This document shows positions 802 through 8,745 of a DNA stretch of 45,626 nucleotides, in pieces. The stretch lies in the IMG/VR virus record IMGVR_UViG_2579779076_000011. One strand, written 5' to 3'. How positions within the stretch are numbered: the first letter of the stretch is position 1; each line of letters begins with the position of its first letter. Under the pieces are notes generated by a model that worked only from the letters and a program-made list of their open reading frames with translations, did not search any database and was not told the DNA's origin. The stretch comes from a virus. Lineage: Duplodnaviria > Heunggongvirae > Uroviricota > Caudoviricetes. Made by a program: the position numbers and the translations under genes.

Positions 802-3020
802 GCTGTTTGCTCCTGTGCGGCGGCGAGAGCGGCGAGGCGTTCGGTTTTGATTTCATTCAAACGGCGCAGGCGCGAACCAAGATAAGTTGAATACTCCTTA
901 TCACCTTTGGATTCTGCGGCTTTGCGGTGAACTTCTACTTCCCGCGCAATAAGGCCATAGACTTTATTAACTTCATTGGGGGTTACGGCTGCAGCCAGTG
1001 TTTTGGCAACACCTGAGAGTCGTTCATCCAGTTCTTCACGCAGTCGGGTAGCATCCTCTGCTTTCTCGCTTGCCTTCTTAATACCGTATTCTGTATTCAG
1101 CTCGGCGGTGTAGGCACTATCGTTATGCATATCCATATAAACATCTGCCGCAAATCCCAGATGAGATAGTGCTTTGACGGTGGCATCAGTAAGAGACTTT
1201 TTGGAGGCCTCTTTTTCCATTACCAGTGCCCCTTTGTTATTTTTTGATATGTAATCCGTGTGGCCATATGACGGAATAAATCCTTTCACTCCGTTCCAGA
1301 CGTACCAGAGATCTATCCGGATGGTGTGTACTGACAGGCAGAACAGGGAGCCGTCAGCATCCCTGACAGGTTTTTGTCCAATAATTTTCCCTGTCTGATC
1401 CTGTATAGGTTCAAGTAATGGCACACCGCGATCCACTCGCTCCTCCTTGATTTCAACTCCCCAACCAATGCCTTCCATTCCCAGCACTTCAGTCGCACGC
1501 ATCAAAATATATTGTGCGCGTATGGAGTGCAGTCCTGCACCGTAATCATTATGTGTGACATACGCAGGATCGGTCCGCTGAACGCGATTCCAGATAGCCA
1601 AATTTGCTTTGCTCTGGTCATCATTCATTGCTGACAGATAATGCTCCATGCGAATTGATGCAGTTTTTTCCTCGGTATGGATCCGCTCAACCAGAGCGTC
1701 AACGTTCTGCACCAGGTCTTTTACCTGCTCGCTAAGTTTTTCTTGTGGAGGAGTCTCTTCTTCCAGGATAACAGTTACAGATTCCCGCTGTGATACGGCG
1801 TTATTTTCTGGTACGCCATACACATGGCGGGGCGTGACAAACTGCTCACGCAACTGCTGCAAACTACGCTCTCCAGCATTTGCTGCTTCGCTTTTTTCGC
1901 CCTGATTTGAGGGGGGTTCTGACATCATCCCATCGATTGAGAATCGCCCGCCGCCGTGGTTGGTGACTTTTACATCACCCTTTGGTGCTGCGTCCTTTGG
2001 CTTCTCTTCAACAGCATTTGCATCACGCTGCCCGTTAGCTTGCAGCCAGTTGTCGATGTGACTGCGCAGGGATTGCGGGAAATGGTACGTGTCTTTTGCG
2101 GGGGCACTCTGAACGACACCGAATACGGATGCCCGGTCATAGGAAAGGATCTGATCCGTTGTGCGCAAGGCCATTGACCAGCGTTTAAAATCCTCCCGAT
2201 CCTGGCTGATTATTTCGTCTGCCGCTTTCAGGACGCTGGGGGTGATTTTTTCCGGGCCAACGGGTAACAGAGCGCAGGCAATTTCACGATCCAGTGTAGC
2301 GTGAGTCTGTTTGTAAGGACGTGCGGATGCTGTTTCTGGTTTTACCTCCGGCAGCATTTCATCGCGTTTACCGGGATTCTCTACCCATTTTTTTATAAAT
2401 TTGGAGATAGTCCAACTGGTCGGGTTTTGTTCCTGGGTATCGCAACTTGCCAAAATTGCATGTACCAGATTATTCAATCCAGCAATATGCATGTACTCGA
2501 TGGGCTTACACGCCACCATGGCATCAAGAACGATGCGGTTAAACGCGTCAACCTCATCCTCACTGTCAGTATCACTGTTGTCGAGCATCTCCAGGTATTC
2601 ACGCGTCTGCGCAAGCAATTCACTGTTGACTTCGTTGGCGTCGTGGCTGAACAGCAGAACGGCGGCGAATCGTTCACGAGCCGGCAGTTTCATCAGGTCG
2701 TTAACCTGTGCGATATCTGCTGAACCGCTATCTACAACGGGGGTGTTAACTACCCATTTTTCGCCATCAAAACTGTGTTCTGTGGCGAACGTCTCATCAA
2801 ACTCACCAACGCCTGGGCGCGGTTGGCCCGGGGCATCTTCCCAGATTTTAGGTTTGAAATAGTTGTCGCCGTGGTCAGGGTAGGCTTCCCACAATTTGCC
2901 GATGATGATGTTCTCGGCAACTTTTTTGTTAGGGGCGTCGATGGCGATGGCCAGCGCCGGGATCGCGCCGTTTTTGAGCGCGCCTTTTTTCGCTTCTAAC
3001 AAGCCGTTAAAAATGGTCAT
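798..3020 (-). CDS. large recombination-module protein with ERF/Rad52-like C-terminal region (tentative single-strand annealing protein)
   Basis: 740 aa ORF with start context GAGGAAAGACCAATG. C-terminal ~200 aa (..KALSHLGFAADVYMD..) resembles the ERF/Sak annealing-protein pattern; the N-terminal ~500 aa are unassigned. Overlaps the downstream Gp157-like gene by 4 nt. Confidence 0.55.
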   Translation of the reverse strand: MTIFNGLLEAKKGALKNGAIPALAIAIDAPNKKVAENIIIGKLWEAYPDHGDNYFKPKIWEDAPGQPRPGVGEFDETFATEHSFDGEKWVVNTPVVDSGSADIAQVNDLMKLPARERFAAVLLFSHDANEVNSELLAQTREYLEMLDNSDTDSEDEVDAFNRIVLDAMVACKPIEYMHIAGLNNLVHAILASCDTQEQNPTSWTISKFIKKWVENPGKRDEMLPEVKPETASARPYKQTHATLDREIACALLPVGPEKITPSVLKAADEIISQDREDFKRWSMALRTTDQILSYDRASVFGVVQSAPAKDTYHFPQSLRSHIDNWLQANGQRDANAVEEKPKDAAPKGDVKVTNHGGGRFSIDGMMSEPPSNQGEKSEAANAGERSLQQLREQFVTPRHVYGVPENNAVSQRESVTVILEEETPPQEKLSEQVKDLVQNVDALVERIHTEEKTASIRMEHYLSAMNDDQSKANLAIWNRVQRTDPAYVTHNDYGAGLHSIRAQYILMRATEVLGMEGIGWGVEIKEERVDRGVPLLEPIQDQTGKIIGQKPVRDADGSLFCLSVHTIRIDLWYVWNGVKGFIPSYGHTDYISKNNKGALVMEKEASKKSLTDATVKALSHLGFAADVYMDMHNDSAYTAELNTEYGIKKASEKAEDATRLREELDERLSGVAKTLAAAVTPNEVNKVYGLIAREVEVHRKAAESKGDKEYSTYLGSRLRRLNEIKTERLAALAAAQEQTA

Positions 3021-3050
3021 TGGTCTTTCCTCATTACAGGTCAGTGGTTT

Positions 3051-3371
3051 TTAGTAGGGGAGCTCATCGGTATCTGGCGTGTATTCGATGCAAAGTAACT
3101 GCTGGATTTTGTCATCGATAGCAGCAATACGCTGTTGAGCGTCGGCGGCTGTATTCTGTTTTTGCTCACGCAGCTGCTCGACCTGCAAACCGATGATGTC
3201 GATTGGCTGGGGCTGGTTGACGGTAATTTCAATTTCGCGGCTTTCCAGAAGGATGTACCTGTCTGGAAAATTTTTTGACATATCAACCGTCGCAATAAAC
3301 AGCTTTTCATGGCTGAAAGTTGAAGTTGCATAATGAATAAAGAGTGTTACTGGGATGGTGCGCGCTTCCAT
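3051..3371 (-). CDS. hypothetical phage protein (106 aa)
   Basis: Intact ORF immediately upstream of the recombination genes on the same strand; no motif recognised. Confidence 0.45.
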   Translation of the reverse strand: MEARTIPVTLFIHYATSTFSHEKLFIATVDMSKNFPDRYILLESREIEITVNQPQPIDIIGLQVEQLREQKQNTAADAQQRIAAIDDKIQQLLCIEYTPDTDELPY

Positions 3372-6908: not shown

Positions 6909-8296
6909 ATCCAGAAGAACTGGAAGCGATCGTTCTCGCTGGTCTGATTAACGGTGGCGCGACGCCTGACGCGTTTGATGTGATTGCCACTACTCCGGAG
7001 GAAGCCTTCAGCATCGTGTTTCACCGTCGCGCTTTCAGCGAAATCAAAAAGCAGGCACTGGCGAACGGCATGATCGACATGTTGTTTATCAGCGAAGCGC
7101 TGGGCGGTTCCAGCCTTGCGGATCTGTCTCAAATATCCCGGATCCCGGCAACGGTACCGAATCTGAAAGGCTATGCCGGGAAAATGGTGCGGGCATGGCG
7201 GAGCCGCAAAATGGCGGCATTGTTGCAATCTGGCGCGGATGGTATCCGTAACGCTGTAAACCAGAGTCAGCGTGATGAGGTTATTGAATCTCATGTTGCT
7301 CAGGTGCTGGATATGAGCGCCGCTACCGGCACAGTCCAGCCGGTACACATCAAAGAGCTGTTACCGCTCTACATTGACACCGTTGATAAACGGATGTCTG
7401 GTGACGCGCAGGAAATGATGCTGAAAACCGGAGTCGAGGATCTGGATGTCGCCCTGGGCGGTATCAACATGACCGATCTTGTTGTGGTTGCCGGTCGTCC
7501 AGGCATGGGGAAAACGGAATTTACCCTGAAGATTATCGATGGCGTTACCGCAGATGGCGGCGGCGCACTGTTTTTCAGCATGGAAATGGGCGCTCAGCAG
7601 ATTGTTGAACGTACCGTTGCCGGGGCTGGGAATATGTCAACGTCGCGTCTGCGTAATCCAAAAGAAATGGACGATGAGGATTTGACCAGATTAACCGCCG
7701 CGCTTGCAATCATGCAGGATCGCGATATCTGGATTGTTGATGCCACTGATTTGACGATTGAGCAGATCCGCGCCATTGCAGAGACTCATAAACGCCGTTA
7801 TCCGCACCTGAAGTTGATTGGTGTTGATTACATGGGCCTGATCAAAAAACCGAAGGCCGAGCGCCACGATCTCGCTGTCGGGCATATCTCCCGCAACATG
7901 AAGACTATGGCCATGCGTCTGCATACCCCTGTTTTTGCTCTTAGCCAGCTTTCCCGCCAGGTGGATTCTCGACCTGCTGGCCAGCGTCGCCCGGTGATGT
8001 CGGACCTGCGCGATTCCGGCAGTGTTGAGCAGGACGCTGACAGCATTTTGTTTTTGTACCGCGATGAAGTTTACACACCTGATTCACCTGCAAAGGGTAT
8101 CGCCGAGGTGATTATCGGTAAAAACCGTTCTGGCGGGGCAGGTGAAATTATTTATCAGGAATTCCGGAATGGGCATTTCCTGCCAATTGATCAACACGTA
8201 GCACGCGAAAAAATACGCATCCAGAAGGAGGCAGAGCAACCGAGAAAACGTGAAAAACGGTATTCAAACAAAAACTTTAATACGGACCCATTTTAA
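6905..8296 (+). CDS. replicative DNA helicase, DnaB family
   Basis: 463 aa; Walker A GRPGMGKT, DnaB-type C-terminal RecA-like domain motifs (SQLSRQ.., DSGSVEQDADSILFLYRDE). Confidence 0.9.
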   Translation: MNPEELEAIVLAGLINGGATPDAFDVIATTPEEAFSIVFHRRAFSEIKKQALANGMIDMLFISEALGGSSLADLSQISRIPATVPNLKGYAGKMVRAWRSRKMAALLQSGADGIRNAVNQSQRDEVIESHVAQVLDMSAATGTVQPVHIKELLPLYIDTVDKRMSGDAQEMMLKTGVEDLDVALGGINMTDLVVVAGRPGMGKTEFTLKIIDGVTADGGGALFFSMEMGAQQIVERTVAGAGNMSTSRLRNPKEMDDEDLTRLTAALAIMQDRDIWIVDATDLTIEQIRAIAETHKRRYPHLKLIGVDYMGLIKKPKAERHDLAVGHISRNMKTMAMRLHTPVFALSQLSRQVDSRPAGQRRPVMSDLRDSGSVEQDADSILFLYRDEVYTPDSPAKGIAEVIIGKNRSGGAGEIIYQEFRNGHFLPIDQHVAREKIRIQKEAEQPRKREKRYSNKNFNTDPF

Positions 8297-8334
8297 CCAC
8301 GCATGACCAGCGTGAAATAACCGAGGAAAGACCA

Positions 8335-8745
8335 ATGACCACCATTTCAGGCAAATTAGAGTACCCGTCGGACAAAGGACACATAGACGACGGTAAAAAC
8401 TATCTCGACGTCATTTTGTGGAATATGAACGCCGGGCCACGTGCGCGCACTCGTGCGGTTTTTGTACTAAGACCCAAAGCAGGCAATTTTTCAACACCAG
8501 CTCAGCCTGCCCGTCAGGCATCCGTAGCCGCAGCGCCAGCAGTGAAACGTAAGGGCAAAACGCACACCGGGATCGCGATTCGCAGAAATGGTGAGCGGCA
8601 AGTGAAACTCCACGAAACAGCGACAACCTGGTGTGCCTCACCGCATGAAACTTACGACAAGATAACCGGACAGCGCATTGGTGCGCCTGGTCGCTGTCGC
8701 CTGCTGCTGAGTTCCATCACTCCGATAGCAAAGAAAGGGGCGTGA
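8335..8745 (+). CDS. hypothetical protein (136 aa)
   Basis: ORF preceded by the conserved TGACCAGCGT..GAGGAAAGACCAATG start context; no motif recognised. Confidence 0.5.
   Translation: MTTISGKLEYPSDKGHIDDGKNYLDVILWNMNAGPRARTRAVFVLRPKAGNFSTPAQPARQASVAAAPAVKRKGKTHTGIAIRRNGERQVKLHETATTWCASPHETYDKITGQRIGAPGRCRLLLSSITPIAKKGA

Follow-up and report, generated by a model that had tools for sequence, protein, structure and literature searches.

To our knowledge, each of the antisense RNAs known from temperate phages (OOP, sar, sas, c4 and CI) controls one gene or one operon. Here we analyse a 45,626-nucleotide (nt) stretch of Caudoviricetes DNA (IMG/VR record IMGVR_UViG_2579779076_000011; hereafter the window), which is an Escherichia coli prophage with a Rac-like immunity region. 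The 9-mer GGAAAGACC recurs in its early region, at gene starts and in an early leader. On balance, we read this motif as the target site of a phage-encoded, trans-acting small RNA (sRNA) directed against ribosome-binding sites (RBSs), which would repress recombination, replication and the downstream early blocks. A single predicted sRNA matches a portable RBS cassette that heads several unrelated early modules in both divergent operons.

The nearest described system in logic is c4 of phages P1 and P7 (Rfam C4, RF01695, and c4-a1b1, RF03163), to which the P4 CI RNA and the N15 CA RNA are related. As with c4, a small structured phage RNA would pair through a loop and single-stranded segments with two short elements in the leader and RBS of an mRNA and so prevent its expression, the same locus would hold additional decoy copies of the target, and we propose that the RNA adds a secondary layer of immunity. 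Whereas c4 is processed from the transcript that bears its targets and controls one operon (icd-ant), the predicted sRNA lies on the opposite strand with a putative promoter and a terminator of its own, and its sites head at least three blocks in both divergent operons. A cmscan search of positions 2900–4400 on both strands, at E-values up to 10, gave no match to C4 (RF01695; clan CL00128) or to a1b1. Nor is the C4 arrangement seen here, in which RNA and targets share one transcript ahead of an antirepressor operon; the targets precede recombination genes, replication genes and genes of unknown function.

Three cis-antisense RNAs of temperate phages, namely OOP of lambda, sar of P22 (against the ant RBS) and sas of P22 (against sieB), resemble the predicted sRNA in being short, terminator-ended, convergent RNAs within an early or immunity operon that are complementary to an RBS, and transcription from the early promoter PL would interfere with the predicted sRNA in the same manner. 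Each of the three has a single overlapping target, whereas in the window partial copies of the cis target over other genes imply a trans regulon. The overall layout, with a 5′ stem, a single-stranded C/U-rich seed complementary to the Shine-Dalgarno sequence, stem-loops and a rho-independent terminator with U tail, is that of the Hfq-dependent anti-Shine-Dalgarno sRNAs of enterobacteria and of the prophage sRNAs or anti-sRNAs DicF, AgvB and AsxR. Enterobacterial trans-acting sRNAs, however, address host mRNAs through short imperfect seeds, while the targets predicted here are the phage's own early genes, recognized through a nearly invariant cassette of 13–18 nt.

The motif itself is real, non-random and conserved. 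GGAAAGACC occurs in six exact copies in the window against 0.29 expected, a number reached in 0 of 100 shuffles. The copies are confined to positions 3022–8333, leaving the late region (10 to 45 kb) without any. Downstream of the predicted PL, the minus strand carries four of them (3030–3022, 3453–3445, 3611–3603 and 3675–3667), and the PR operon on the plus strand has the other two (5675–5683 and 8325–8333). A preliminary description of this stretch had stated that all copies are in the sense orientation of their early transcript, which is true for both PL and PR, and every sequence and coordinate that it quoted is present as given. The recurrence in related phages that it had anticipated is likewise borne out, since the motif stands at orthologous gene starts in relatives, BUCT708 included. 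The complete BUCT708 genome has 10 copies of GGAAAGACC against 0.24 expected, all in sense orientation and all in the early/lysogeny region. In a scan of viral contigs, the composite motif was found in at least 120 loci, whose 1.17 Mb hold 651 copies of GGAAAGACC, where a simple arithmetic estimate gives about 9 by chance. A companion sequence, TGACCAGC, has five copies in the window against 1.15 expected. Four of the five stand beside motif copies (3627–3620 and 3649–3642 on the minus strand; 5651 and 8304 on the plus strand), and the fifth, at 2175 inside an open reading frame (ORF), is probably a matter of chance. GGAAAGACC is also identical to positions 2056–2064 of 23S rRNA, the A2058 macrolide/Erm/TLR13 site. 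We judged this identity a coincidence, given that a 9-mer has a chance of about 2% of matching somewhere in ~4.4 kb of rRNA and that no mechanism links the two.

At gene starts, the motif is part of a cassette of fixed order, in which a short hairpin placed right after the preceding stop codon is followed by an A-rich spacer of 10–16 nt, GAGGAAAGACC and (A)(A)AUG, the start codon lying 0–5 nt past GAGGAAAGACC. The preliminary description had taken the upstream TGACCAGCGT for a linear box; the sequence is there, but it is rather the loop and 3′ arm of this small hairpin. Comparison of at least 120 related viral loci showed that the 7-nt loop is conserved as N-UGACC-N, whereas the stem is variable and covaries (GCGC/GCGC, CGGCGC/GCGCCG, ACGC/GCGU, CACGC/GCGUG, CUGCG/CGCAG and GGUGU/GCACC). 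When cassettes were located by the hairpin alone, the 9-mer was exact in 200, had one mismatch in 37 and two mismatches in 9, the remainder being background. In the target stems, read as mRNA, G·U substitutions number 11 and A·C substitutions 2, an excess of G·U that suggests a structure at the RNA level. Conservation extends to the loop and to the spacer between the Shine-Dalgarno sequence and the AUG, neither of which a Shine-Dalgarno sequence alone would demand. The proposal of a reused translation-initiation or regulatory cassette was sound as to a conserved hairpin-plus-RBS cassette heading early blocks, but it missed the probable regulator.

Three such cassettes are present in the window. 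The first (5645–5687, plus strand) consists of the hairpin AGCGC-CUGACCA-GCGUU (5645–5661), the spacer, GAGGAAAGACC (5673–5683) and the AUG at 5685. Its hairpin begins at the last base of the stop codon of the ydaT/cII-like gene, and its gene is a 74-residue ORF whose translation is coupled to that of the replication initiator and DnaB. The second (8298–8337, plus strand) has the hairpin CACGC-AUGACCA-GCGUG (8298–8314) 2 nt past the DnaB stop codon, then the spacer, GAGGAAAGACC (8323–8333) and the AUG at 8335, where a 136-residue ORF leads the next overlapping, coupled block. The third (3018–3045, minus strand) contains CUGACCUG, GAGGAAAGACC (3032–3022) and the AUG (3020–3018) of a 740-residue exonuclease/recombinase gene. 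Its hairpin stem is degenerate in the window, and relatives keep the full GGCGC-GUGACCU-GCGCC. The only sizeable intergenic gaps in the early operons of the window are those headed by the three cassettes. In BUCT708, cassettes occupy the orthologous positions, with one extra copy before a DUF4224 gene next to int.

The predicted sRNA of ~137 nt is encoded on the plus strand at ~3402–3538, antisense to the PL leader and immediately upstream of the first leftward gene. It opens with stem-loop 1 (SL1; 3403–3448), in which the 5′ GAUCAG pairs with UUGGUC, followed by the single-stranded UUUCCUC (3449–3455), which is unpaired in both the minimum-free-energy and the centroid structures. SL2 (3456–3479) and SL3 (3484–3507) each display the hexaloop UUGGUC (3465–3470 and 3493–3498, respectively), and a terminator closes the RNA (stem 3515–3533, running through 3539), formed by GGCCCGCCUUGUGCGGGUC and then UUUUGC. 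The seed GGUCUUUCC (3445–3453) is the complement of the motif copy at that place. A putative –10 box, TATACT, at 3390–3395 would belong to the sRNA promoter. Among 57 unique homologues with differing flanks, 46 have TATACT and 11 have TATAAT at this place, about 7 nt before the first stem, and 14 of the 57 have an extended –10 (TGn).

Several results assign the structure to this strand. The minimum free energy is –62.1 kcal/mol (z –7.6) on the sRNA strand against –42.4 kcal/mol (z –4.2) on the other, and the antisense strand is the stabler one in 56 of the 57 homologues, by 13.6 kcal/mol on average. In alignment A1, 95.2% of cells pair, compared with 39–47% (about 42%) in slid controls; compensatory double changes occur in 16 of 33 pairs, including 8 of the 9 in SL2, and the non-Watson-Crick cells on the sRNA strand are 96 G·U against 10 A·C. 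A GC-rich hairpin followed by 4–7 U exists only on the sRNA strand, was also called by an independent terminator scan, and has covarying stems (GCCCGC/GCGGGC, GCCCAC/GUGGGC and ACCCAC/GUGGGU). The order of SL1, single-stranded UUUCCUC, SL2, SL3 and terminator is constant among homologues. A covariance model, R1, matches the window at 3401–3538 with 112 bits (E 1.2e-27). It finds exactly one copy per locus in 53 of 53 loci, always opposite and just upstream of a 106-residue ORF; these loci were fetched through the 106-residue protein alone, at 39–100% identity, which removes the bias of the earlier motif-anchored sample. R1 also finds one copy in the BUCT708 genome, and it gave no match in 9 distant or 5 unrelated loci. 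The structure of the gene, its strand and its terminator are thus established, and a rho-independent terminator on its own strand together with a strand-specific covarying structure is what bacterial sRNA genes generally show. We consider the sRNA gene very probably real.

This RNA is complementary to the cassettes. The seed region of the sRNA reads 5′-CGUUGGUCUUUCCUCAU-3′, to which AUGAGGAAAGACCAAUGAC at gene 3020 is complementary over 18 nt with one G·U, GAGGAAAGACCAAUGAC at gene 8335 over 17 nt with one G·U, and GAGGAAAGACCGAUG at gene 5685 over 15 nt with two G·U. At all three genes the predicted duplex spans the Shine-Dalgarno sequence, the spacer and the AUG. Net cofold energies, which count the unfolding of both partners, were calculated for 76 start regions of the window (mean –4.8, sd 3.7 kcal/mol) and used instead of duplexfold tiling, which proved too noisy. 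The three cassette genes rank first, second and third of the 76, with –19.5 (8335), –18.7 (5685) and –15.2 kcal/mol (3020). The accessible part of the seed, the unpaired UUUCCUC, is complementary to the very starts that rank at the top. In addition, the target loop UGACCA(G) can pair with the UUGGUC loops of the sRNA, and the order of loop and RBS in the target is antiparallel to that of seed and loops in the sRNA. The trans cassettes fit targeting by the sRNA because the reachable loop and the single-stranded RBS were kept while the stems diverged from the cis copy. The flank of the seed is suggestive as well. Where the sRNA has CCUC, GAGG stands in 201 of the 203 trans cassettes, and targets with UAGG (5 of 31) are restricted to phages whose sRNA reads CCUA, a covariation that would support the pairing.

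As a separate observation, the sRNA of the window type carries an insert in SL1, GCUUCCAUAGCGUC (3421–3437, plus strand), which duplicates the complement of the start region of the 106-residue ORF. This insert has 12-nt complementarity to GACGCUAUGGAA (~5158–5174) around the start of the cII/YdaT-like gene, a start region that comes fourth of the 76 in predicted binding.

The sRNA overlaps the leader of the leftward transcript. PL is predicted on the minus strand at 4220–4248 (TTGACC, 17 nt, TAAAGT), and conservation of the leader, which is of mosaic composition, begins near 4213. Between PL and the first leftward gene (3371) lie ~840 nt without a convincing ORF, and the predicted sRNA gene is situated close to the end farther from PL. 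Within this leader RNA, the segment 3436–3510 (minus strand) is the perfect complement of the sRNA, in which GACCAA-loop hairpins precede GAGGAAAGACCAA. In many relatives the RBS of this cis target drives a 47-codon ORF, the AUG of which is changed to ACG in the window. Past the 3′ end of the sRNA, two more copies of GGAAAGACC (3675–3667 and 3611–3603, minus strand) and the hairpins ACGC-CUGACCA-GCGU (3654–3640) and GAGC-CUGACCA-GCUC (3632–3618) are decoy candidates. Relatives have 2–5 such units with differing stems and constant loops, as well as GCCGG-GAAAGA-CCGGC hairpins. The preliminary description had listed the copies at 3445–3453 and 3603–3675 as having no obvious long ORF behind them. 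That remains the case, with no conserved ORF after the leader copies 3603–3675 in the window or its relatives, but their nature has become clearer: the former is the complement of the predicted sRNA seed, and the latter stand among the UGACCA-loop hairpins of the PL leader. We rejected a small-ORF reading of these copies, as the frame of a 38-residue ORF in BUCT708 is unconserved in the window and in other relatives. To judge by sequence, the leader copies may act as decoy or sponge sites on the PL transcript.

From the above features we infer that the sRNA is expressed, acts in trans and represses its targets, and that the leader serves as its decoy, which enables us to propose a putative mechanism. 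The sRNA would expose a single-stranded anti-RBS seed ((UUGG)UCUUUCCUC) and two identical UUGGUC hexaloops. Every early block, namely recombination (gene 3020), replication (the 5685 ORF, the initiator and DnaB) and the block from 8335, opens with a cassette that partly repeats the sRNA's own cis-complement. The cassette loop UGACCA would pair with the UUGGUC loops, and GAGGAAAGACCAAUG would pair with the seed over the Shine-Dalgarno sequence, the spacer and the start codon. Such pairing would block 30S binding, and translation of all blocks would be repressed together; cro and the cII-like gene would escape the seed. Upon firing of PL, the leader RNA would supply one perfect and several partial complementary sites, and PL transcription would converge on the sRNA promoter. 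Finally, titration by the leader and convergent interference would remove the sRNA, and the blocks would be released together.

Several observations weigh against this reading. The flank covariation rests on few lineages, and no variants of the seed itself were seen: GGUCUUUCC is kept in 31 of 31 terminator-anchored viral contigs and in 53 of 53 protein-anchored metagenome loci. It is invariant in every homologue found and offers no variation for the decisive test of seed–target covariation, and a single-protein scan of genome contigs for seed variants returned one locus. Covariation between the sRNA loops (UGGUC or UGGUU) and the target loops (GACCA or AACCA) was not found either; phages with UGGUU in the sRNA loop still have mostly GACCA target loops, a combination for which U·G wobble would allow. 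The GGUC portion of the seed is base-paired within SL1. The predicted promoter of the sRNA is recognizable by the –10 hexamer only, with neither TGn nor a convincing –35 in the window copy, and it went uncalled in a consensus promoter scan of the window. Strand asymmetry in the decoy region does not favour a sense RNA; it is uninformative there, the antisense strand folding slightly better by composition. Moreover, identical upstream sequence is fused to different downstream genes with the junction exactly at the motif.

This last feature is at the heart of the best-surviving alternative, which we nevertheless regard as rather unlikely. It holds that the cassette is simply a good translation-initiation module joined to a hairpin between cistrons, which might stabilise the mRNA, mark a processing site or insulate coupling, and that this module has spread by recombination at the borders of gene modules. 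The action of the sRNA would then be limited to cis targets, namely the leader and the first leftward ORFs, and its overlap with one cassette copy would be due to chance. The fusion of one upstream sequence or cassette to various downstream genes at the motif and the mosaic leader are what such spread would produce, and the invariant seed, which yields no covariation proof of trans pairing, and the absent loop covariation agree with it. But recombination alone would have kept the stems too, whereas the stems vary and covary and it is the loop and the spacer from Shine-Dalgarno to AUG that are fixed. The conserved parts are exactly those complementary to the accessible parts of the sRNA. Optimal spacing fails to explain the fixed 9-mer as well, given a distance of 0–5 nt between motif and AUG.

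A second alternative, which we consider unlikely, would make the cassettes operators of an RNA-binding protein, encoded by phage or host and probably dimeric, with the PL leader as a CsrB-like sponge. The protein would recognize GACCA in a hairpin loop and AGACCA between the Shine-Dalgarno sequence and the AUG, much as CsrA recognizes GGA. The architecture is suited to this, with a loop site and a second site over the RBS 25–28 nt downstream and many loop-displayed copies in the leader. A CsrA operator proper, with A(N)GGA in the loop, is not what is found, the loops being N-UGACC-N or GACCAA and GGA occurring only in the Shine-Dalgarno part. Scans against protein families revealed no RNA-binding candidate among the early ORFs. 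In the hairpins by 3445–3453, the G·U pairs are on the antisense strand, so that the selected loops are UUGGUC rather than GACCAA. Finally, both conserved elements are already explained by the sRNA, and the binding of early phage proteins or of RNA-binding proteins from the host, which the preliminary description had brought up, may occur but is no longer needed.

Processive antitermination, through nut-like sites with boxB-like hairpins and an N-like protein or through put-like RNA elements, is very unlikely. There is a resemblance: as in the nut boxB of lambda and P22, the hairpin has a GC-rich stem and a purine-rich GAC loop, and the leader has hairpins with GAAAGA loops. The cassette hairpin appears to resemble P22 boxB, GCGCUGACAAAGCGC. 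In addition, PL transcripts must read through an intrinsic terminator in the leader (3768–3754, minus strand), and the want of an evident N gene has a parallel in HK022. Unlike nut sites, which combine boxA by the hairpin with an N-like protein and occur once per early operon, the cassettes are found in 3–6 or more gene-start copies per phage and at RBSs deep within operons. Furthermore, boxA-like sequences number 14 against 11.8 expected with none adjoining a cassette, and there is no N-like ORF between PL and 3371. DNA-level sites, either protein-binding iterons or recombination linkers, are the least credible explanation, because, for all that xGACC pentamers stand 10–22 bp apart in the leader and module junctions coincide with the motif, the orientation strictly follows transcription, stem substitutions are G·U rather than A·C in the transcribed sense, and the position relative to stop and start codons is fixed.

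If the motif is indeed the target of the sRNA, a broader proposal may be considered, which we regard as possible rather than probable: that sRNA, cassettes and PL leader form an RNA-level commitment and immunity switch for the whole prophage family. In a lysogen, the sRNA would keep every early block silent on top of CI repression, and it may also silence incoming heteroimmune relatives that share the cassette. Upon induction, the sponge of the PL leader and the interference would destroy the sRNA, and recombination, replication and downstream functions would be freed simultaneously. The cassette would then be a phage-made 'address label' that puts unrelated, exchangeable modules under one riboregulator. 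If confirmed, a mosaic phage would hold exchangeable modules under common post-transcriptional control, and an RNA layer would be added to the lysis–lysogeny decision and perhaps to cross-immunity. The pair of cassette and sRNA might further be of use as an orthogonal translational switch.

The prophage is a common one: 449 of 5426 complete E. coli genomes, mostly of the pandemic ST131 lineage, contain the sRNA sequence, which the Prokaryotic Genome Annotation Pipeline (PGAP) leaves unannotated. Among deposited phage genomes only BUCT708 and BUCT709 carry it, and it is also found in many other viral and metagenomic contigs. A search of Rfam 15 (4227 models) gave no family match at gathering or at permissive thresholds, and the plus strand at 3460–3542 returned only sub-threshold, terminator-driven matches (Trp_leader 19, isrK 14 and Chlorobi-RRM 15 bits). 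In the library of papers that was searchable, neither sequence strings nor topic queries led to an account of the sRNA or its sequences. CRISPR spacers of E. coli SMS-3-5, 1218KP and 2020CK-00188 match the leader/sRNA region exactly or nearly, at window sites ~3635–3678, ~4096–4129 and 3440–3472. The spacer of 2020CK-00188 matches the sRNA seed and SL2.

A genuine P1-type module lies in the same prophage on the plus strand, with c4-a1b1 at 9945–9997, isrK at 9958–10032 and C4 RNA at 10057–10142, followed by an ORF6N/Ant-like gene (10146–10982). With the sRNA described above, the prophage would carry two separate antisense-RNA systems.

The PL leader contains further elements. A structured element of ~170 nt (4099–3928, minus strand; core GGUAGCCGGAAUGUGCAAGCC...GAUUCACCAUC..GGCGAUACGGUGUGAC..GGAAGAG) is conserved, and it recurs in unannotated gaps of the unrelated phages SPN1S, Tyrion and PAT1, between terminase and portal and on the opposite strand, as well as at the genome end of SopranoGao and in the P1-like D6 and SJ46. 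RNAalifold gives it 37 pairs, 7 of them with compensatory changes, and it has no Rfam match; it may be a mobile phage noncoding RNA. At 3795–3745 (minus strand), the leader closely mimics the 3′ half of the host sRNA RprA, with UUGCUGUGUUUAGUCUUUGCCC and a rho-independent terminator. This element scores 37 bits against Rfam RprA, under the gathering score of 70; most relatives keep it, and its terminator stems covary. A terminator within the PL leader is implied, and the phage may make an RprA-like sRNA of its own. Lastly, a tRNA-like fragment (3878–3798, minus strand) comprises the T-arm CCGGUUCGAUUCCGG and an acceptor-like end, at 19 bits against tRNA-Sec. ARAGORN calls no tRNA there, and the T-arm fragment, absent from BUCT708, is a separate feature of the leader.

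The immunity region of the window contains a helix-turn-helix repressor gene (4368–4796). Other early-region products are a YdaS-like Cro, a YdaT/cII-like protein, a DnaD-like initiator, DnaB, an exonuclease (phrog_2489) and a Gp157/Gam-like protein. The tRNA-Ser/mtfA locus adjoins the prophage in strain RM9387. The replication-initiator gene of the window (5912–6908) consists of two overlapping frames on the plus strand, 5912–6373 and 6273–6908, in place of which the RM9387 relative has a single ORF of 1065 nt. The split is probably due to a frameshift near the C/G/A homopolymer runs at ~6330–6350, reflecting either a pseudogene or a sequencing error.

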